DNA of 59,480 nucleotides, the filler included, from Sphacelaria rigidula (Eukaryota), in NCBI GenBank assembly GCA_964200075.2. It is 6 parts of 6 records of this genome, joined end to end, with 100 filler letters (N's around TTAATTAATTAA, not from the genome) between each part and the next. Parts side by side here need not be neighbours in the genome. Positions count along the whole stretch, not along the records: positions 39,724 to 49,552 come from CAXNAA020007671.1; positions 49,653 to 59,480 come from CAXNAA020007672.1; 4 more parts are not named here. The stretch is one strand, 5' to 3'. Of this stretch, positions 11,098-59,240 are shown in pieces. The notes below the pieces were generated by a model. It made no database searches. It was not told the DNA's origin and saw only the letters and a list, made by a program, of their open reading frames with translations. Position 1 is the first letter of the stretch. Each line of letters opens with the position of its first letter. The position numbers and the translations under genes were made by a program.

Positions 11098-14000
11098 ATG
11101 GCTTCTGCAGCCGCGGCCGTGGCCGTATTCATGTTGCCGTTGCTGGCTGCCGGTCAAGATACCAGCCTCCAGTCATGTGTACAAAGCGGCTATGCAATGC
11201 TCAGGAGCTGCCCCTGTGATGGGGCGCAGTTCACCTTCTCATTGGAAGGGGAAACCAGGATCGTTGATAACACGGTAAGCTACGAAAGAACAATCGCGTC
11301 TCGCGTGCCCACTGAGGCGCGATACTATTTGATCCTCATACGGACTGTGTTGATTGCTTGAACTGCTTAGGCTGGTTTGAATGCCCGCAGCAAGTCGGTC
11401 GGTACCGTACCCTACTGTACTGTACTGTACTGTGTTGAACTGTGTTGAACTGTATTTTGTATGCACTGCACTCCACTGCACCGTCCTGCGCTGTGCTGGC
11501 CTGGGCTCTGCGCTGTACTAGACGGAAAAGCTATCGTTGTGATGATCGGATGGTGCGCAGTAGCAGCATGTCTATCGATCGGCGAGCTCGTGTACCATAC
11601 GTCGTCGTCTGTGGCGTTACTGCATGGCTTCTGTCATAGCACCATTCCGAAAACCGTTTGAACCTGCGTTTGTGAAGTGCGCCGTTGTCAATTCTGAGGT
11701 GACCCTTGAACCTAATCCCAACCCAAGCCATACCGAGAGCCCTCGAGCAAGGAGGGTACAACGGGTGTCCTAGCCTAGGAGGTGTGCATTGGCGGACCTC
11801 GAATTGGCGCCTCCGGTGATTGGGACAAAAACGCGTGCCGGGTGTGTTAGTAGGCACTGTAGGTTGTCCACTGAAGATCCAGATCTCAGTTCCGACACTC
11901 GAGTCAAGCGAGGTTATCCACGGATAGGATGGGGCCAGGGTGCAGGGCTGTTTAGCCACTGGTCGCAGACTGTGATCGATACTATGAATGAGTTGTCGGC
12001 AACCCTAACCCTAACCCCGACCAAGGCATATGAGCCCTCGGGTACGCGGGGTGCAGAGAGTGCCCCACGTACGCAATATGTGCACTGGTAGACCCCAAGG
12101 GTCTATTTGGATCGGACGTTCTGGAGGGACATGAAGCACTTCGCACTGTCACCCGCTCTAAAGATCGAAAATCAGTGCAGACCTCATGTAACAACCACTG
12201 CCTTCGACCATTTTGTACACTCTTGCCGGGGTGAAACAAACCCCACTCCAACGGCATTTATTTCTTGTTTCTCCGACATTTCATATCCGGGCATGAAGTG
12301 CGCGTCCAGGCGAAGGTAACGAGACCGTCCCCATCCTAGTCAGGACTTCCCCTCAAGATCTCTGATTTGACCCCTCCGTTGTCCCCGGTTGCGGGCGACG
12401 GTTTCGGTCTTAACCGGCGCTCTACCAGTTCGTAAATTACTCAAGCTCGAGATCGGAGAAATGGTCAGGTGGCGAACAAACCATCAATATTCTTCCGAAT
12501 CTAGCGGTGAAACCAATCCGTGTAAAGTCCACCATCTCGGTGATATCACCCGATATTGCATCGGAGTTCGAACAACCCTAGGGTTGGGGTCAGGGGCGTA
12601 GTCCCTGCAGGGACTGGCCCGATTGGTTTTGAAAAACGTCGATCCTGAGGTGTCTTGAACTACGATGCGGTCCCTTAAGCACGCCGTCCTCTACACGTTT
12701 TTCCTTCGAATGTGAGCACAAGGTTTCACACTCGTAGCTCGCGCCGTAAGCCTTCTTCCCCCCTTGGTTTTTGTCGAGACAGCAAAACCTCCTATTCTTG
12801 GTCATTCCCCCCACCCCCCGTCTTGGAAGAGGATGTTAGCACGTATCCACTGAGCTATCAGCAGCTCTAACTCATAGCTCAGTGGGTATGTTGTATATCT
12901 AATAGTTTGCTCATTACTAATCGGCCCGACAAATTGATTTCGGGATCATCATTCAGCGATTTGAACCCCGTGATCGGAGAGGTCAATCATGTGTCCATCA
13001 CGGGTCTAGCTAGGTTTTCAAACACCCCGAAACCGAATACTAGTGGCTAGGTCATTTATCATTCTGCCATGCAATCAATTGTAGATGGTGATGGTACAAC
13101 CCATTCTCACACACTTGTCTCTTCCCCGTTGCGTGTGCTAACTGACAGGTCGATCTAGCCATCGTGCTAGACGGGTCGGGCAGCATTGACTCTGCTGATT
13201 TCCTTCTCGAGAAGGACTTCGCGCAAAACGCAGTAGCTGCGTTCGCCAACCGCAAACTGTTCGGGAACGGCGGGACGGCCTCGTACGTGCAATTCAGTGA
13301 TGATGTTGAATCCTTCGGCACATTCGTATCTCAGGCCGACTTCGATGCGTTTGCCAACGGTGACAAGCAAGCGGAAGGTGCGGAGCGTATCATGTACCAT
13401 ATGACTCACGACAGTGTTTTGTTGTGCTGTGCGGATGCTTCTGATGTTCGTTTTCGTAGATCGCCGAACGCACGGCGCTGACTTGAAATATATCACTTAT
13501 TGCATACCGCGGAAACACGCGGTCTGAGTTTTGTCAGCGTCTTGGCGCTGCGATGACCGTAGTTCTGCAATCGGCATCAGTGCTACAAGAACTCACTAGG
13601 TATTGCACATCCTGTCATGGTGAAGCTATCCGGAAGTGTGTCGCGTTTCTCCGTTCATATGCCTGTTGTGCTTGTCATTGTTGACCAAATCAAGCGTCGA
13701 TCGAGGGGTGTGATGGTGGGTGCACAATTTTTCTCTTAGGCTCTGCACCCTGGGAGCCTCTCGATGAGAAACATGTAGGCCTCGGTGTGCCGCCTGAAAA
13801 CGTTTGGTTCGTGGGTGGAGAATGACTCTCGGATATGATGATGGCTAGTGCGTGCTGCGTTCTCCAACGTGGTTTTGGTGCAACGAAATTGGCAAAAGCG
13901 TCATCGCGCTCATGTTCTTTCCTGGATCAGTGAACAGCTATACTTACGGCACCGACAACGACTGTGTAGACTGTTGGCACACGCGTCATGATACTGCCGA

Positions 14001-23900: not shown

Positions 23901-25062
23901 GGGTTAAGCTGCCCCAGCTCGTAATAGTATTGTGCGCAGTGATGCGCGACAGTTTGGGGCAGCACTATGTGTTGTCGCCTCGGGAGTTGAGTACATTGAA
24001 TCCTCAATACATATACTGACCTCGGGAGGCAGCCAATGTACTACTCGACAAGTGCATATTGGCACCTTGCCGCAACATAATACTCCGCCACCGAGTCATG
24101 ACATTTTTCCAATTTTTGCAGAAACTTCATATCGCTCCATTTTTTTTTTTTTTCTGCTTGGCATCCCCGGCAAGGTTGTGCGTAGTGATGATAAAAATGC
24201 TGTGTCAAAATTTCAGCGCCCAACGTTTCGGATTACCCACCGCCCGGCCCGGATACATTCGCAAATCACTGTCAGCTGGCCCAGCTCGTATATTGACCTG
24301 TCTCTCGTTCCATCATATTGCTCGGCCACAATGTATCGAGCGCGCGACGCGTAGACATGTTTGGCAAGAACATATATTGCATATTGTATTGTCCAGGGTA
24401 GGCTTCTACTTATTATGCTATAATAGCACGCTTTTACAAAAAAAAAAGTGACCCATGATTATTTTCAAGATGAACGATTTTTTTTTTTAATTGTGCTAGC
24501 ATAAAAAGTAGAAGCCTAGTTCAGGGTGTGCGCAATTCCGACCACTTTTTTGTTGTTCATTCCCATATACTGAATGTGCGTGTCTATTATTTCAGAATCC
24601 CCTGTTGAATAAACGTCAGGCGAATATCTAGTTTCGGTCTTGAGATAAATAAAGAAGGAAAAAAAGAAGAAAAACGCCAAGCCTTTGTCGCAGGGCTTCA
24701 AGTAGGGATACCGTGGAACCACAGCACAAGACCAGAATAAAATGAAGGCAGTGGAAGCCTGTTACGTTGCGACTTGAGCATCTCAGAAGTACCCCACGAC
24801 ATGACGAGGGAGAAACTACGGGTCGCTCTTTAATCCTTAGACAGCGAGAGTAGGCCATCTGTTGATTCAGCATCAATTTCACTCGGGAAAAAAGTATTCA
24901 TGATCTATATAGATGGACTATTCTCGCGGTGTAGGGGTTAGGAACCTTTTTGAGAACAGAACGAACAACAGCAAACAACAGGTAAGTTTATTAACAGTAG
25001 CCCGAACTTTTGTCATCCTCCACCCCCCTTTCCCCAAACATTGTGTGTCCCGCCGCTTCCAG

Positions 25063-28000
25063 GGGAGTGTAAGTAAAGTGATGGACTTCGGTTGCTTCGT
25101 GGAACTGAGGGGGTTCCCGCAGTTGGCCAACGGGAAGCGACAGGAGGGTCTGGTCCACGTCAGTCAGATCCAGAACGGCATGCTGAAGGACCCTAGCAAG
25201 GCAGTGAAGCGCGGCCAGCCCTGCAAGGTCAAGGTTATATCCATGGTGAGTATCTTTTACTCGGTAACCTTGTGATGAAGCAAGTTCTTGTTTTTAATTT
25301 CATTTCAATCTCCAGTTCGCTCCCCTTTTGAGGGTTGGCGTCGGTTGAACGACACTGTAAAACACGCCATTCAATGCGTAAGCTAGGCAACCAGGTTACC
25401 GTTTTTTTATTTCCGCTTTCGTTTTTCATTTGCGGTAACTAAGGCGATGTGATCGAGTTAGATCATGTTGTGCGGGGTGAGGAACCTCAACTCCGTGCAC
25501 AGGGAATGATCGCACCATGCAGTGCCTAGATGGTGAGCCACCCATGAGGCGGTGTGTAGCACGTAGGTGTCTCTAGAAATGATGATACCAGAAAACCAAG
25601 CAGTTCATTCGAGGCTGTCATCCATATATAAGACGATCAGTGCGCGTAGTTGGAAAAAAGAAAAAAATTGAAAAGTTCAACGATCCGAACAAGTGTGTAT
25701 TGTTAATTTTTGCACGATTCGTACTTTTCGAAAGTTGAAAAACAGGGCTCTCTACGGTATACGTCACACGTACGTTACACGTCACAGACGTTACGTCACA
25801 CGGGTGTGACGTGACGTAACGTATGTTTTTCGAAGACGTCACAAATGTGGCGTGACGTAACGTACCGGTGAAAAAATGTGGCGTGACGTGACGTAGTTTT
25901 TGAATGCGTCACATTGGCGCATTTTGAAAAGTCTCTTGTAACGTGTAACGTGTTTTATACGTTACACGTCACAATGAACGTTACTCGTCACACTACACGT
26001 TTGTGATGTCTGAATGTACGTCACAGCCGTCACACGCTCAACTTGTACCACAATTAGTGTGATATTAGCATATGTGATACTCGTATTATATAATACATGG
26101 GGTTCACGAACAGTGTGCATACGCCATCAAAATACGCATGCGATGTAAGCGCAAGTTCAGGGCCACGGCACGGCATGTACCGCCACACCACACCCAACCA
26201 TAGAAAAAGCGAATATCGGAATCCGAAAGCACTAGTTTCGAATTTCCGAATTTCAACTTTCCAACTTCGATAGCACAGACGGGGCGGGAGCGACTTGTAA
26301 CGTGAAGATGAGCACGGCCCAGGGTTTCCCTTCAGAGCATGTCAAGGCAAAATAAGAACTACGAAGTATTCAGAGACCTTGTGACTTTTAAGAGGTGCGA
26401 AGGATGACACGAGCTTGTGACCTCGTGGACAAATTCGGCAGCTTCACTGCTGTTCTGTGGGTTTTCTCTTCATTCAGTTGGTTTCGCTTTTTTTTCTCAT
26501 GTTCGTGTTATTTTGTTTTCCTGTTTTTCTGCTCTTCTTCTCTGTTTGAACGTTTTTGTGTAAGTTTTTGTCTCTCTTCTTGGCACAATGAGTCATGATA
26601 TGATTCTACCTTCATGATGTCCGCCCTGTGAACGCGGGTGGGTTCGTACCGGATCATCAGTTTATGTGTATTGTATATATATAGAATATACAGATCTTCT
26701 GCATACACGCCCTGCTGAGTGAGCAATTAATTATAACAATACAGAATCGGATTGCCATGTGCTGGGTGTCCTACGAAATGCCAACCAACTACCAGATATC
26801 ACCAACGTATGATCTGTACATACTTGCGTTTGTATGTGGACATCATGGCCTGCGCGCATCTTGGTATCTCATCACGTATCTGATTATCGTGCATCAATAA
26901 CGTACTCATGTATTTATTTGAAATTGCAACGCGTGAGTCAGGGACGCGTGAGCGATACACACAGCTGAAACGTTTTCTTACATGTCAAAATAGCGAGCAG
27001 AACGCGCCTCATGCTCGGACAAGGCAGCCACCGTGAACCTCCCGTACCAAGTCACGGTACATGAAACCTTACAAGGTCGTATGTAGTGTTCATATGCCCT
27101 CAACACGGTCGAAGTGTAAAGTTTCATTGTACGTTACACGTCACAAACGTAACGTATATTATTCGTTACACGTCACAATAAACGTTTCAAAATACGTTAC
27201 TGTGACGTGATGTAACGTATGACTTATTAAAGCGTCACAAAGTGTGACGTGACGTAACGTACCGGTAAAAAAATGTGACGTGACGTGACGTAATTTTTAC
27301 GATGTTACATTTGTGAAGTAACGTGTAACGTGTAACGTAAAGAGCCCTCCAAAAAACTAATGCCATGAGAGTACTTTTGACTTGTGGTGCAAACTTTGTG
27401 TCGTCGTAAGAGCTGGGGAGGGGGGGGGGGGGACTAGTAAGCATGGTGTACGTATATGAGTCGTCGCACGATTCGTCTTTTTTATTTCACGACGGGTTTG
27501 GAGAGTAACTTAAGAACGTAGTGTTTTTGTCGTGTCGCACATTTCATGCTTTCTTTGCAAGGTGAGAAGAGCCTACCTAGCAGATATATTTATGTTAATG
27601 TTGTCTCACATATCGTCATTCCTTTTCAAGGTGGGAAGAAGAACCTATGATACTCGTATGGCAGACATGTTTATTATATTGTTCTGTCGAACGATTCATT
27701 TCATTTCTTTTTTTTTTTGCCGAAAGTTGGGATAATGACACAATAGATTGCATCGTCGAACATGTACGGCGTCAGTACGGAATCTTTCGTCCATTGCAAT
27801 AGACAAAAAATAGTCGATACTGTACGCGGTACACTTTTTTTGACAGTGCAATCTATTGTCATTGTTGTCCAGGCTACGGAAAATAATGCTAACAAAACAT
27901 GGGTGTGCTTACTAATGAATATTTTGTTGGAAAAAAAAAAAATCCGTCATTCTTCTTCATTAATTTTCAGGCCGGGTCTAGGCTAAGCCTGAGCATCAAA

Positions 28001-28171: not shown

Positions 28172-28782
28172 GTATGTACAGCGGTTATTAGGGCTAAGCT
28201 CATAAGAGTAGGGTGACGCATGCTCTGCGCCAAGTTGATATGGGGTTTTTGGTGGGTTCGATTCTCCACACTTGCCTTGAGCAAAGCTTTGCGAACGCTC
28301 GAGGCGCCTACCGTACCCCACATGATTGCCGTACCAGGCTAGAAATCCGGGTTATCGAGATACGAACCCGCTTGGGGGGGGGGGGGGGGGAGGGGTCGGG
28401 TTTGAGGTTTCCTCATTTTTTCAAGGAAAGAAAAAGAAAAGCGGTTGGTGAGCGCTTGACTGCTCGAGTCAGCGTCATAATCTGAAAACACTGTAGGGTC
28501 GGACAAATCACCGCCGGATCGAGTCACCAAATCTACGATGCTTGAGGCGTGATTGCTCGAGAGAGGAACAAGTTGACCGCGGGTAGGAAAAAAGCCTCCA
28601 CGCTTATGTTGCGCCATGTCACGTCTTGCCTCGGATGCACATACCTGGGGTGCAGTGCGACGCTGAAAAGAAAGGCAAAGTATTTAAAGTATTGATTCGA
28701 GCAGTAGGAATCAATTACACTTATTTTTGTTTTTTGTTCTTCCTTTTTTTTGCTTCTTTTTCTCCTTGTCTTTGACTTTGTT

Positions 28783-28835: not shown

Positions 28836-28930
28836 CATTGTGTTGACATCAAAAACCGTTCCGATATCTGCGTAGTACTCTATACTGGGCATCTGGTGCG
28901 AACGCCTTCCTTGGTCGCGGGCTAGCTACC
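28784..28930 (-). mobile_element. Retroelement 3' end with (CAA)n tail
   Basis: (GTT)n at 28784-28834 followed by aaaaccgttccgatatctgcg...; a homologous copy at 48015-48630 is split by an insertion. Confidence 0.55.
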
Positions 28931-47325: not shown

Positions 47326-48110
47326 TGTTTTTTTTTTTGGGGGGGGGGGGGTACAGGTCGGGAGGCCACCTGCCCTGCTTCGAGGTGAACCATTTCACGG
47401 CCCATGTCCACGTTTGTGAGGCTAGCGAAATTCCAGGAAATAACTCCAGCCCGATATACCAACGTACGTACGCACGCCGTATATGTTTCACATCCGGGGC
47501 AATGACAATTTGATGTCAATGGATGCAATAGATGAATATACTGGGTAAAGTATAGGCATACTGAAACTATTATCGGTGTCTGTTGTAAGTAGCGGTATGG
47601 CCCAGTTCTAGCGCAATGGTTTCGGCTGTAGACATACCGACGTTTATTGTGGGACATACACTGCGAGTGCTGTTCTCTGAACGTGGTCGATGTTCTTCGA
47701 ACTGGTCGATGTTCTTCCTGGTCTCGTTTTTCAGTCATCGAGGTTGTCCAGAAATTAACTGTTTTGGTGTTCAACTTCACCTTACGTATAACATCAGTAG
47801 CTGATTTCACGTGATGATACACCTCAATATTTTTGCCCGTCCGTTTTATATCCTTCATATATTTGGAATAGTGAAAATAGGAAATATGCCTTGCTCTGGG
47901 GTCACCTGTATATTGCCCGTTTGTTCTAGGACTTCGTTTTATAAGTAGGTTTCTCCGGGGCAGGTTGTTGTCGATACAGTAAGCTGGGCTTGAGGTTTGA
48001 GTGGTGCTACGATAGTTGTTGTTGTTGTGGTGGTGGTGGTGGTGGTTGTCTTCGCATGAAAACCGCTCCGATATCTACGCAGCACTCCGTACTGGGGATC
48101 TCATGCGGAC

Positions 48111-48597
48111 TGTGACGGTTCTAGAGACGACCAACTAGACTACTGCCTGGTCAGCATCTATTGAACCGTCACAAAAGTTAGGCGTGGGGGTTCGATCCCC
48201 GTCCCTTTCACTCCGAGGAGGGCGACTCCCCTTGCCAGCACTCTATCGACTGCCAGCAGGATCTCTAGTGTTGTCACTCTCATTCCCTGGAGTTACGTGT
48301 CTCTCCCACTCATTCCCTGGAGTTACGTGTCTCTCCCACTCATTCCCAGAGTGTGTGCACTACGGTCCCTAGCAGTACACTCCAAACATAGCCACCAGGC
48401 CTATACCCCACCCTTTTTCATTTAGCCAATTGTTTACAGAGGTTTTCTCTCCTCTTTTTTTTATAAAGAAAGTGCGTCCGACGGGAATCGAATCAGCGAC
48501 TAACTTTTGTGACGGTTTAAGAGACAACCAACTAGACTACTGACCAGTCAGCGCTGACTGGACAGTGGTCTAGGTGGTTGTCTTTCGAACAGTCACA
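48111..48597. mobile_element. 487-bp TRIM-like element with palindromic TG..CA terminal repeats, 4-bp TSD (GGAC) and convergent tRNA-like A/B boxes
   Basis: GGAC|TGTGAC...GTCACA|GGAC. Terminal repeats at 48111-48173 and 48508-48597. B-boxes at ~48189-48200 (+) and ~48484-48495 (-). Internal 30-bp tandem repeat at 48278-48347. An empty-site homolog lies at ~28885-28930. Confidence 0.8.
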
Positions 48598-49866
48598 GGA
48601 CACGTTCCGTGGTCACCGCTGACTACTGGAGCTCGGAAATGGTTCCAGTTATAACCGGCCACTATCATAATGGTGATAATGGTAATGGTTGTATGAAAAT
48701 GTTGAATAATGGTTTCAAACCATCATTTATCGCTAGCGGCTTTGTAAGCCGTTATCGGCTACGTATTGTACATCGGAGTTTTGAGTCATCCCACGATAGG
48801 GGAGGGGTATTTGGTTGCACGAAAAAAGTGGCTCAAAAGTGTGTCGGGGGCGACCTGCCACACTCGCGGTGCGCTCGTATTTGGTATAAAACGGTGTCGA
48901 TAGGTATGAAAAAGCGTTATTTATCCTTAACAAGCTCGTTCGAGCAACCGTTGCTGCTTTCAACGACGGTTTGACATGGAATTTCGTGCAAGAAGTGGCC
49001 CAAAATACCCCTCCCCCCCCAATCGTAGGAATGACTCTTTTGCTTTCGTTCTTGTAGTGTGTATTATTTCGGGATATCTCTTTGTACGGCGTCGCAGCTA
49101 GCTCGTTTGTCGAAGAGTGCGTTTTATTGCTCTTATCTTTGTCACCTTTTGTTTCGTTTCCTTTTGTTTTCTGTTGCACTTGTTTCTTTCTATGACCACG
49201 GCTGAGTGCGCAGCGAATCAGTGAAAAAATGTTAGAAAATCCACAAATCAATCAACTGAGTGCATCTTGTATAGCTAGCTCCTTGCGATTGTGTACCGTG
49301 CCACCGTCTTCCGACATCAACTCAGCAATCGCTTACTAATTGTCTTTTTGCTGAAGAATTATCCCGCTGTCAACTTCAGGCGGTGGACAGCACACCCATG
49401 GTGCTCTGCCACGTTGCCTATCTTGAGCTCGTGGCCAGCCTTTACCATCGATGGCTCGTACTTGAGTCGAATCATCCTGCGATAGCGGGGGGGTTATTTT
49501 GGGCCATTTGTTGCTCGAAGTTTCGAGTCAGATCGTCGTTGAAAGCAGCAACNNNNNNNNNNNNNNNNNNNNNNNNNNNNNNNNNNNNNNNNNNNNTTAA
49601 TTAATTAANNNNNNNNNNNNNNNNNNNNNNNNNNNNNNNNNNNNNNNNNNNNTTTAGAAAAGGACGGCGAATGCCGTTCATCAGGAATATTTTTCATGGC
49701 AAAGGCGGTTGGGGGGACCGATACTCGTGACTTGAGACAATAAGCAAATTTCAAGGGTTCGAAGGTTTCGCCTTGACAGATGTTCACGTTGAAAAATATC
49801 TCAGATCCGTCGACAGATGACCCGACAGGGGCGATCATAAATCATGGCACAAGGATTTCCTCTTAC

Positions 49867-52237
49867 CGCGGGAGCTGCAGCCTCCAGCGCCGCCACCTCG
49901 GCAATGACATCATCGTCACTCATCTGCAAGTCCTCGTCGTCCATGCCTGGACTGTCCGATTCACGGCCGCGCTCTCTCACCCCCACCTCCTCTGCCCCTG
50001 TTGCACTGGAGTAATTTCCCTAAGTGATTGCTTGAACCAATACTGTATCAAGAGGACATCCACTAGAGAAGACAGCGAAAAATGCAGCAGAACTCCGGTT
50101 TGGAGTGTGCGCCCTTTGTTGGTTCTCCTTTGAAAGCTCTTTTATCGTGGCGATTTTGAGGACGTGAAGACAGAGGGCTGCTGGGAAGCGAACAGGACAT
50201 CGCATACCGACGTGAACGCAGATGATGTCCAGAGGCAGGCAGGGGGGGAGGGGGGAGGGGTGGAGACAATCTCAGAGATTACAGTACCACTTCTTACATT
50301 TCCGAGTGATCGGCAAGAATACCAAATGCGTGAAAAGGGCGAGACGGCGGTGGGGGAAAGGGGTGGGCACGGCATAGTTTCACACAAGCGCAGACACAAG
50401 GTTGCATCATTGTCGTATGGACGATACTGCAGATACTATATTCCGAGTCTGCTCTCGAACACAGTACAGTGTAGTAGTGGCCGGGGCAACACATGGTGGA
50501 CTAGTGCCGAAGCTCATGAGAGTAGGACGGCGCGTGCACTGCGCCAAGTTGACAGGCGGTTTTAGTGGGTTCGAACCCCGTACTGCCTTATGCAGAAATT
50601 CCCCCAACGCTGAGGGGCCTACCCTACATGACTGCCGCGAGGCGGTGTCGCCAAGCCTCCGAGGTAATCGGCATACGGACCCGTTCGCGGGGTGTGAGTG
50701 TTGGGTGAGGGTTCCTTGTTCAAGGAAAAAAGTGACAAATCATTTCTTTGCTACGAGGATATGCACAAAACAATGTTTTTGGGTGTGCTTGTACTACTGT
50801 ACGTGTATCTCGTGGCCACGGCTCAGAAGTTGATGTGAGGTAATCATTCATAATGGACCTCAGCAGCAAATGTTCATGACCTCATGGCACAGAAATGAAG
50901 AGGAGGCACCTCATGGTCAATGGTCAAACGACTAAGGCAAGCAACACATGAGAACGCCCCCCCCCGACCACCTCTCCTTGCACACGTCGAGTCGGGGACG
51001 CCGATCCACCCACTGCGGGCTTTTACATCAGCACGCGCGTCGGTCAGTCCGGTATTCTGCGTCGTTCCCGTGGTCATCGGTAAGCACTGTCTCTGTGTCC
51101 GTGTGCATCAGAATGGTGTACATTTATGCTGCGCTGTTAGACTAGACTGACTTGGAAAGAAACACTGTGCACACAAGAACATACTGCACATGCAAGAAAT
51201 TCTCCGAGAAAAGACGTGGGGGTAAGTATGAGGAACGGTATAGTACGGTACAATAATATTACAAAAGACAAACAACAGTACCGCTCCGACTCTGGGTGGG
51301 GCAGACTACCCTGTTACACGCTGCTGATGACATGATCCAAGCTTGCTATGTTGCACTGGCACAACAGTATGTGGAAAATACTACGAACAGCAGACCGCAA
51401 AAAAACATATCGATGTCTGGAGGCCGACTTTACGCACACGACTGTACTGTCTGTATGCAGTTGGCTCACGAGCGTCATGGTGAGGCCTCGAGTGCAACGA
51501 ACAACACATCGCGCGCGGGGGAAAGAATGCATGTACACTGTGTACACCCGCCGCAGTCTATTCTGTCAGGTTGCAAAGATGTGAAGTTCGGCCGCAGGAT
51601 CAACAAGTTGGTACAACAGTATACAACAACACGGTAATATCGTCCGTTACAGAGGGTCGAAACAATTTGACAGTCGCGTACAGGAACGTATCTGTGGTAT
51701 GTGAACCTTGTGATCCAGTGGGTCACAAACCTCTGCTCCTGCACCGCGAAAGGGCACAAAATTCACGAGTAACGTCCCCGACTGAAGAAGAGCGCAACTT
51801 GGGACCATATCGTGGAGCTCTGAGGACACCCAGCGGGGCAATACGAGACCCGATCGAGGTTCAGCACCTAATGCACCGGGATCTACGTACAGGATGTGCT
51901 TGAACTGTTTCCTCGAGATCGTTTAAAATTAAGCGATTTGATCGCTTCGTTCGGCACATTTCCTTCATTTCTGATAATGTGAAATACCACGGGCATCCCT
52001 GTATGGCTGCGTATAAAGGTAAATCTCAGAATCCAAGGGGTGTTCTGCCAATGCAACTCACCAGCCGATGTAGATGGCGCCTCTGTGTTCCAAGCCCCGC
52101 GCCTTTGCTGTCGCTGTCTTCTGCACTTTTCGGTATAACACTTGCTTGAACTTCGTTGTCAATTCCCGTCGGTCATATTGATGTAATCCCATGGTAGAAC
52201 GTCCTTCCTCTTGCCCGTTCCTGATGGTTGGTGTCAT
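49867..52237 (-). CDS. Probable multi-exon gene of unknown function, divergent from APC2 (partial; exon chain tentative)
   Basis: Best exon is 49867-50005 (…PGMDDEDLQMSDDDVIAEVAALEAAAPA|gtaaga). Candidate exons are ~50097-50180, 50623-50714, 50910-51086 and 52062-52237 (|gtgagt). The four downstream exons are phase-compatible; the first exon link is unresolved. Confidence 0.4.
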
Positions 52238-55500: not shown

Positions 55501-56925
55501 ATCCAACGACTATGACTGTAATAAGAGTTGTGGGCTCGTAATCTTTGAAATATATGTCGTAGTTTTCCAGTTATATGCGTAGGAGTCGACTATCGGTGCG
55601 GTCGACGCCATGCAAGTCTCTGAGGATCGCGTCCAACCTGCCTATCTGTGCCTTACCCTTTTCTATTACTTTGGTTATGTGTGCATCCCAAGAACAGCTT
55701 GTGGAGATCTCCACGCCGAGGTATGTATACTGGTCTACGATCGGCAATTCCTCGTCTCCCTACTTCCATTTGAACTCTACCGGGTTTTTCTTATCTTCGT
55801 TACAGACGGGTACCGCGTATTTGTTGACGTTCGCTGTCAATCTCCATTTCCTAGTGTATTCTAGAGCCTTCTCTATCTGTTTCTGTAATCCTTCTGCTGT
55901 TCCTGAGATCCTCACAAAATCATCTGCGAATATCAAACCTGATATCACATCTTTACCCACCTTGACTCCTTGCTTTGCTGCTTTTATTGCTATTATCAGG
56001 TCATTAATAAATACCTTGAATAACGTGGGTGATAACGTACATCCTTGTGCAACTCCTTGTAAGATATCGAAATATTTCGGTATTCCCCCGTCTAGCCTCA
56101 TAGCACTTTGGCATATTCTGTCATATTCTTCACCATTCTCCACATCTTTCCTCTGATCCCAGTTTCCCACAGCTTTTTACACAACCCATTTCTCCGTACT
56201 GTCATAAGCTTTTTGTACGTCCAGAAAAAAACAATACGTTGTCAGCCCGGCGTCTTCCCTACCCTGAAATAGCATTACCTAGTTTCTACACATGGTCTAC
56301 GCAATTACGGTTTGATCTGAATCCTGCTTGCCCCTCGCTGATTTTCTTTTCCTTTTCTAGCATCGTTCCCACTTTATCGTTCGGAGTCTTGCAGAACGTT
56401 TTCCCTACCGTGCTTAGTAGCGTTATCCCTCTATAGTTTGCTGGGTCAGCCTTGTCTCCTTTTTTTAAAGGTTGACCACTACTCCTTTTCTCGACCTATT
56501 GGGTGTGTACTCACTTTCCCAGATCCTATTATGCAGCATAACCATCATGGTAACCATTCCCTCTCCCCCGTACTTTTGAAATTCTATTCACTATTTCGTC
56601 TGCCCCTGCTGCCTTATTGTTCTTGAGATTAGCTACGCACTCCTCTGCTTCATCTCTGGTAAATTCTATCTGCATTTCTTTCAGGCCACCATCCTCCCGT
56701 TTCGACGTCTCTACATTTGCCTAATCTGTAGACCAAAAAAAGATTACACTACGCGCACATGCTCGCAGGGTTGTTGAGCATTCCATCGATTTCGCTTCTT
56801 ATTGACAATTATCCAATGTCATCTCCCTCAAAGTTCCAAACTCGACCGCTTTCGATCTGACATCAGGAGGGGAAGGAGGAAGACGACGGCGGCGAAGAAG
56901 AGAGCGACGATAGCAGCGGCAGCAT

Positions 56926-59123: not shown

Positions 59124-59240
59124 CGCCGCGCTCCGGTGATCTGATGGTAGAATCGACAACGTCAGGGTAGAAAAACCGCAACACCGTCACGGTGAAAATA
59201 GCGCAGGTTCGATTCCCTCCAGATGTGCGATTGTCTTTTT
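59124..59240 (+). mobile_element. tRNA-derived SINE head
   Basis: A-box-like tgatctgatggtag and B-box ggttcgattccc; homologous to 7250-7325. Confidence 0.55.

Follow-up and report, generated by a model that had tools for sequence, protein, structure and literature searches.

Positions 48111–48597 of a 59,480-nucleotide stretch of Sphacelaria rigidula DNA (six parts of assembly GCA_964200075.2, joined end to end with filler; hereafter, the window) hold a 487-bp insert, and the evidence supports that this insert is a genuine copy of a mobile element with exactly these boundaries. Read on the sequence, the layout is GGAC/TGTGAC...GTCACA/GGAC, with a terminal TGTGA at 48111 and its inverted copy at 48597. 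The reading that we favour, and to which we give about an even chance of being right, is that it is a decayed copy of a non-autonomous element resembling a miniature inverted-repeat transposable element (MITE), which would have arisen from the head of a tRNA-type short interspersed element (SINE) and been moved by a retroviral-integrase-like DDE enzyme. The parts of the element, its target-site duplication (TSD) and the site that stands in for the empty target are the following.

48107..48110, no strand: left TSD copy, GGAC (direct repeat; the paralogous site has a single GAAC)
48111..48155, plus strand: left outer arm (A), beginning with TGTGACGGTT (87% identity to 48508–48552)
48156..48173, plus strand: remnant of the left inner arm (A'), its final 18 nt; the 27 nt that preceded these, with the A box, are deleted
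48174..48215, plus strand: left B module, a T-arm-like hairpin, inverted relative to 48470–48507
48216..48469, no strand: non-coding, strand-asymmetric body (spacer, tandem repeat, T-runs)
~48246–48278: possible degenerate second head within the body (weak inverted match)
48279–48347: perfect 30-bp tandem repeat, 2.3 copies, 100% matches
48470..48507, minus strand: right B module (inverted repeat, BLAST)
48508..48552, minus strand: right inner arm; read on the minus strand, the 5' half of a tRNA-like unit
48553..48597, plus strand: right outer arm (A'), ending in GTCACA (84% complementary to the inner arm)
48598..48601, no strand: right TSD copy, GGAC (direct repeat)
28850..28920, plus strand: uninterrupted paralogue of the host repeat, standing in for the empty site (alignment)

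The element lies in a host repeat, and after removal of the element and one GGAC this repeat aligns without gaps, over the insertion point, with its uninterrupted counterpart at about 28850–28920. Since the paralogue shows a single target, the flanking GGAC copies represent a true duplication at the insertion site. The filled and uninterrupted repeats are about 75–80% alike, which makes the latter a paralogue and not an orthologous empty site. A preliminary description of this DNA had proposed a 487-bp insertion with TG..CA ends and a 4-bp TSD, and had called on the uninterrupted repeat near 28900 to back the boundaries; both proposals hold, the second through a paralogue only. Insertion without duplication, as in IS200/IS605-like elements, is ruled out by the genuine duplication that the paralogue reveals. 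An introner (intron-generating) design was ruled out by eye, because element plus TSD offer no GT...AG register on either strand. No further copy of the element, whole or fragmentary, turned up when the window was searched with it by BLAST.

Both ends of the element are built on a palindrome. The right repeat (48508–48597) is made up of two 45-nt arms that adjoin directly (0 nt apart) and are 84% complementary. Folded as a single DNA strand, it reaches -33.1 kcal/mol, compared with -10.7 ± 2.1 kcal/mol for 200 shuffles, none of which was equally stable (z = -10.7). The left repeat (48111–48173) is made of the outer arm, 87% identical over 45 nt to 48508–48552, and the final 18 nt of the second arm; relative to the right repeat, the 27 nt directly after the palindrome centre are deleted. 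When a 30-nt arm probe was searched with up to 3 mismatches, only the left and right repeats were matched, and none of 100 shuffles gave any match. The element has TGTGACGGTTT ends, and TGTGACGGTT occurs at 48111, 48164 (minus strand), 48508 and 48588 (minus strand), so that each palindrome has one left-type and one right-type end.

The inverted symmetry extends about 40 bp inward past both palindromes. An inverted-repeat search detected the internal modules (AAAGTTAG..TTCGAT.CCCGTC) over 28 nt at 89%, and BLAST over 47 nt at 81% (E 1e-5). If A is the 45-nt arm, A' its complement and B the 40-bp module, the order is A-A'(deleted)-B-body-B'-A-A', and the reverse complement of B'-A-A' is A-A'-B. 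Because the mirror symmetry runs on into the B modules, the ends are best read as palindrome-containing terminal inverted repeats (TIRs) of about 130 bp, a more economical reading than that of long terminal repeats (LTRs). The direct-repeat appearance arises because the terminal repeat is itself a palindrome: a pair of directly oriented LTRs (45 nt with 87% identity, and the 18-nt end) is present formally, and via the palindrome only. Hence the LTR-like ends of the preliminary description survive as formal direct repeats and give way to TIRs as an account of the structure, whereas its description of the right repeat as a 90-bp imperfect palindrome with 45-bp arms was confirmed by complementarity and folding, and that of the left repeat as the same unit minus 27 bp past the centre by comparison of the two repeats.

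Motifs resembling the internal promoter of tRNA genes are embedded in these ends. Using A-box and B-box consensus sequences, we located an A-box-like motif (TAGTCTAGTTGG) on the minus strand at 48131–48142 and at 48528–48539, the first of which, in the left outer arm, faces outward. A perfect B box is present at 48189–48199, and a minus-strand B box with one mismatch at 48484–48494. In the right unit the A box lies 45 nt upstream of the B box, which is the spacing found in tRNAs. The A-box half is inside the terminal repeat and the B box outside it, the unit thus straddling the junction. With one B-box position left variable, this A..B module occurs once in the 59-kb window and in none of 200 simulated windows, and for this reason we consider it likely that A'-B, a tRNA-head-like unit, is descended from the head of a tRNA-type SINE. 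ARAGORN reported no tRNA in default mode or with -ps, and with -ps80 or -ps70 made only calls off the predicted unit. Rfam returned no tRNA match at E<=10, even over 111 nt, its only output being weak, spurious matches of miRNA, SAM-II or Y-RNA type that the hairpin gave rise to. The two inward-facing promoters proposed earlier are therefore present at the level of motifs, but this copy has one A+B pair: the right unit carries the B-box mismatch, the left unit lost its A box through the 27-nt deletion, as had been suggested, and neither program recognises a tRNA.

Three other places in the window recall small-RNA-derived repeats. The stretch 59183–59217 (ACCGTCAC..AAAA.TAG.CGC.GGTTCGATTCCC) resembles the arm/B-module junction plus the B box, with a local score of 29 compared with 14.6 ± 2.0 (maximum 26) for shuffles; it has no palindrome, and a (GTT)n microsatellite follows it. 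At 12841–12891 two further arms, both resembling the 5' half of a tRNA and both with an A box (TAGCTCAGTGG), form an inverted pair. These arms are 21 nt long, 86% complementary and separated by 9 nt, and a B-box-like GATTTGAACCCC lies about 80 nt downstream (~12958); the hairpin architecture is that of the 487-bp element, the sequence a different one. Finally, a two-copy repeat (28196–28249 and 50510–50563, 83%), with a palindromic B-box-like GGTTCGAACCC after the second site (50567–50578), may be a further small-RNA-derived repeat.

The distribution of the element was analysed in public sequencing runs, 20 of which were listed (best share of sampled words 0.48, none reaching half). No RNA run was listed as containing the sequence, which carries no information on expression. 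Small shares in marine and rhizosphere metagenome runs were left out of the interpretation, as was the depth of run X3, whose RNA origin is a guess. Contigs of four of them were aligned at 80% likeness to the 1.9 kb between 47400 and 49300. In run X1, one contig of depth 71.5 represents the unique left flank and matches it over 607 nt with 0 differences, and because of this identity we take X1 to come from the same organism. A total of 16294 X1 contigs aligned to the 1.9-kb stretch, which no listed contig covers whole. Summed depth within the element varies between 1.5e5 and 2.6e6, compared with 71.5 in the flank; since summed depth gives a rough order of magnitude and not a copy number, we put the family at roughly thousands of copies, as an order of magnitude only. 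About 100 distinct X1 contigs cover single positions of the element (118 at 48493; 101 at 48204), and run X7 showed the same pattern. Furthermore, at the best-supported loose end within the element, at least 113 X1 contigs match from 48508 (TGTGAC) on and are preceded by unrelated sequence (median 242 nt, agreement 0.36). These correspond to the outer termini of other copies, because k-mers common to the four arms make these collapse onto the one that is best preserved. This indicates that the element family is multicopy, dispersed and very abundant. Two outcomes that the preliminary description had named as refuting, a single copy and a chance nest of SINE heads, are excluded by the shared boundary and by the abundance in the runs.

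Other contigs gave information on the structure of further copies. Two contigs joining 48583 to 48164 come from copies in which the left palindrome is intact and the B module comes next, and a joint from 48558 to 48173 (one contig in X1, one in X7) is another deletion of the palindrome. At 48562 and 48567 the letters of the family majority improve the palindrome, a T to C change at 48493 restores the right B box, and the A and B boxes are kept in the majority. In run X11, which is from another organism, 4 contigs aligned, of which 2 fall on the element. One contig, of 70 nt, spans the palindrome centre with 1 mismatch, and a 155-nt contig, to be regarded with caution (depth 2.39), has two tRNA-like units in tandem without the palindrome. 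The tandem units of X11 and the stretch 59183–59217 show that tRNA-like units occur outside the palindrome, as they would if independent SINE heads or fragments had become nested by chance and no element with these boundaries existed. The contigs largely refute this explanation, which we regard as extremely improbable: the boundary is common to 113 contigs, other copies have intact left ends, another organism retains the palindrome centre, and both the TSD and the paralogous empty site are exact. Exact-pattern scans gave 0 loci in metagenome contigs and 0 in viral contigs. Three genome-contig loci in bacterial records, found by exact match of an 18-mer, were taken as chance matches and discarded.

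The depth profile bears on the unity of the element. In X1 the arm reaches about 2.6e6, each B module about 0.8–0.9e6 and the body about 1.5–5e5, roughly 4:2:1, and we attribute these ratios to the collapse of the arms of a symmetric element in k-mer assembly. The arm depth, more than four times that of the body, would also be expected from a composite, in which the 90-bp palindrome is a minimal, TIR-only MITE and two copies of it mobilise SINE-derived DNA in the manner of a composite transposon flanked by insertion sequences. The presence of a left-type and a right-type end in each palindrome fits such a composite, as does a joint from 48400 to 48508 with 6 letters between (2 contigs), in which an arm follows directly after 48406 in the body of another copy. 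Against it, the B modules adjoin both palindromes in mirror symmetry, and the A box of the arm stands at tRNA spacing from a B box outside the arm; because of this spacing, arm and B module are one ancestral unit and not a chance juxtaposition. We hold the composite to be distinctly unlikely.

The body (48216–48469) provides no coding capacity and differs between the strands. Only two ATG-initiated open reading frames (ORFs) of at least 30 aa overlap the element, of 41 and 32 aa. No TGG was found within 11 nt after the left repeat (AAAGTTAGGCG), the first one being at +12, inside the T-arm-like hairpin; a primer-binding site (PBS) was here defined as a TGG adjacent to the repeat, anticodon-loop priming falling outside this definition. 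As for a polypurine tract (PPT), purines make up 45% and 35% of the 20 nt preceding the repeats on the two strands. The lack of a canonical PBS, PPT or ORF had been noted in the preliminary description and is borne out. Apart from a T4 at 48505–48508, the plus strand has T-runs at 48414–48418, 48443–48446 and 48455–48462, and the consensus of the loose ends at 48400, together with the majority letters at 48461–48464, suggests that these are kept in most copies. The minus strand has a single T4, 48176–48173 (A4 at 48173–48176 of the plus strand), placed exactly at the left junction. Because of the plus-strand T-runs, the minus strand is the only one along which RNA polymerase III (Pol III) could traverse the body, starting near 48550 and ending near 48173. 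The earlier proposal of an orientation-symmetric element, giving a panhandle RNA from either strand, accordingly fails for the body. The polarity is only suggestive of a minus-strand Pol III transcript: a stretch of 377 nt free of TTTT has a chance of about 0.2 by a rough estimate, which makes it weak evidence either way. The perfect tandem repeat at 48279–48347 has the lowest coverage of all parts of the element in the runs, and for this reason its repeat number is probably variable among copies.

One important question is whether the element could have been propagated through RNA, as a terminal-repeat retrotransposon in miniature (TRIM) with a Pol III promoter (TRIMp3, Helenus-like), the palindromes being true LTRs and the RNA being copied by the reverse transcriptase and integrase of a Gypsy-type element. 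Direct terminal repeats, TG..CA ends and a 4-bp TSD are shared with animal Helenus, and 487 bp is within the Helenus range of 311–1263 bp, according to PMC10886601. A tRNA-like promoter module is present, A and B boxes are kept in the family majority, and a reverse-transcriptase fragment (RVT_1; 55763–56176, minus strand, E 1.7e-10) elsewhere in the window indicates that retroelements live in this genome. Yet there is neither a PBS adjoining the repeat nor a PPT, the tRNA-like unit is not contained in the LTR but spans the junction of repeat and internal region, an LTR cycle would have no use for internal ends that are inverted copies of each other, and the sole T4 on the transcribed strand precedes the 3' repeat, so that a Pol III RNA would be without an R region. 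Hence a classical LTR cycle is disfavoured by the missing PBS and PPT, the inverted internal ends and the position of the only terminator before the 3' repeat, and we judge a Pol III-promoted TRIM to be possible but unlikely.

The absence of PBS and PPT is easier to accommodate in a self-priming retroelement. Here a Pol III RNA would start at the palindrome centre and form a panhandle through B and B', its 3' end would prime the cDNA, and snap-back of the hairpin would rebuild the ends. The single T4 located exactly at the junction is in agreement with this scheme, and the hypothetical minus-strand RNA 48552 to 48172 (-130.1 kcal/mol, z -2.58; 1 of 100 shuffles equal) is predicted to fold so that its 3' end pairs with the region directly following the 5' arm. 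This pairing is, however, a trivial outcome of the complementarity of the TIRs. Moreover, the transcript is hypothetical, the T-runs block the plus strand and thereby orientation symmetry, and the steps by which both outer arms would be rebuilt are unprecedented. We therefore consider self-priming very unlikely, and give slightly less credence still to its complete form, a Pol III retroelement without PBS or PPT in which the 3' end at the junction T4 primes its own reverse transcription and snap-back rebuilds the palindromes. If true, self-priming with snap-back would be a replication scheme undescribed for TRIMs, SINEs or MITEs.

The reading that we favour, a MITE-like derivative of a SINE head, assigns a part to each of these features. 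Each TIR of about 130 bp consists of a 90-bp near-perfect palindrome (TGTGA...TCACA) followed by the 40-bp module. The inner arm and this module would together be the head of a tRNA-derived SINE-type unit, and the outer arm an inverted duplicate of the 5' half of that head. The element has no enzyme of its own and would move in trans, presumably as DNA, by means of a transposase like that of Ginger or a Gypsy-type integrase; such a DDE enzyme would recognise the TGTGACGG ends and cut with a 4-bp stagger. Instability of the palindrome would have led to the 27-bp loss in the left end. The Pol III-like module would be inherited from the SINE ancestor, and may still give rise to minus-strand RNA that begins near 48550 and ends in the T4 at 48176–48173. 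The features by which MITEs are recognised, namely short length, lack of coding sequence, TIRs, a TSD and high copy number, were all found.

Several observations weigh against this reading. No integrase or transposase was encoded by any of the window ORFs of at least 90 aa (181 of 181 scanned), for which the Pfam matches were VWA, S1 and the RVT_1 fragment only, and no longer or other TGTGACGGTT-ended element was found in the window. The terminal repeats are also direct repeats, and a promoter-like module with a lone minus-strand T4 at the far junction would suit an RNA intermediate. The TSD was read from one copy (n=1), and its target, GGAC (GAAC in the paralogue), fits neither Ginger1, which targets CCGG or CCGT, nor Ginger2 (Tdd), which targets RTATAY, as given in PMC2836005. 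The Ginger hosts listed in that 2010 paper are animals, Dictyostelium and a fungus, algae not being among them.

Other repeats and coding segments of the window were recorded alongside. To the right of the element, 48616–49063 (and also 49487–49552) belongs to another extremely abundant repeat, with a summed depth of up to 1.3e6; an inverted repeat of 66 nt (83%) links 48950–49015 with 49487–49552. The motif TGTGACG/CGTCACA, which resembles the terminal TGTGACG of the element, occurs 23 times in the window (simulated mean 9.6, maximum 16), and 16 of the 23 occurrences are in two clusters, 25762–26028 and 27139–27274. These clusters flank about 1.1 kb, share a 59-nt direct repeat (25843–25901 and 27240–27298, 92%) and look like the subterminal repeat arrays of another transposon. 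The VWA match is an exon at 13146–13478 (plus strand, E 8.3e-6), and the S1 match an RNA-binding exon at 24913–25272 (plus strand, E 8.9e-8).

If confirmed genome-wide, the family would be a major repeat, with roughly thousands of copies, of an alga-associated genome. It would also be a candidate for the first sign of integrase-type (Ginger-like) mobilisation in this lineage, or for a stramenopile counterpart of the Pol III TRIMs. A palindromic TIR derived from a tRNA head blurs the LTR, TIR and SINE criteria by which non-autonomous elements are classed. Such elements mislead tRNA and miRNA predictors, and palindromes of 90 bp break short-read assemblies.

Among the systems known, Gypsy LTRs and the transposons Ginger1 and Ginger2 share the signature of TGTNR ends with a 4-bp TSD, and Ginger TIRs measure 40–270 bp, according to PMC2836005. 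The preliminary description had related TG..CA ends and a 4-bp TSD to an integrase of the Gypsy or Ginger type, and this signature is stated there. The TGTGA termini of the element fit TGTNR, its TSD is of 4 bp and its TIRs of about 130 bp are in range; in contrast, an integrase-like transposase partner is missing from the window, and the Ginger TIRs are not described as palindromic or tRNA-like in PMC2836005. With the target included, three structural features of non-autonomous Ginger derivatives fit and one fails. For non-autonomous DNA elements in general, the Repbase rule asks for an equal TSD length and no more than 1 mismatch over terminal positions 1–11 (PMC4455052).

On the RNA side, the closest described kind is that of Helenus, Cassandra and Ajax (TRIMp3), in which the LTR of a TRIM carries a promoter derived from a small RNA and the TSD is of 4 or 5 bp (PMC10886601). 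TRIMp3 elements have a PBS and a PPT, as the preliminary description had said of such TRIMs, and a SINE origin is proposed for them. The tRNA-like part of Helenus lies inside the LTR, and its reported hosts are fungi, animals and plants only, with no stramenopile report; PMC10886601 makes no mention of palindromes, inverted repeats, hairpins, brown algae or stramenopiles. Like TRIMp3, the element is small and non-coding, measures a few hundred bp and has direct repeats at its ends, a small-RNA-derived promoter-like module and a TSD of 4–5 bp. Unlike TRIMp3, it has no PBS or PPT, its repeats are palindromic, its tRNA-like unit crosses the boundary and its internal ends are inverted.

With tRNA-derived SINEs (SINE2) the element shares a degenerate cloverleaf and a head whose A and B boxes are spaced as in a tRNA. 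It differs from them in the lack of an A-rich or LINE-derived 3' tail, both ends being a palindrome, in its symmetric TG..CA boundaries with a 4-bp TSD, and in having the head mirrored at both ends. Retrozymes are likewise non-autonomous, with functional RNA motifs in their terminal repeats and 4-bp TSDs; the element differs in lacking PBS and PPT, and Rfam gave no hammerhead ribozyme match at E<=10. MITEs and foldback-type elements are small, non-coding and present in high copy number, with long TIRs, a TSD and hairpin-forming ends. The element resembles them in being small, abundant and non-coding and in its TIRs, TSD and hairpin ends. In the literature searched, which lay outside Repbase, Dfam and the brown-algal supplements, no element with palindromic TIRs derived from a tRNA head was found. 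Of the earlier interpretation as a whole, the mobile copy and the multicopy family stand, whereas the LTR nature, the dual promoter and the orientation symmetry are weakened. Taken together, these comparisons place the element as an unusual form of known small mobile elements, rather than as clearly a new class.

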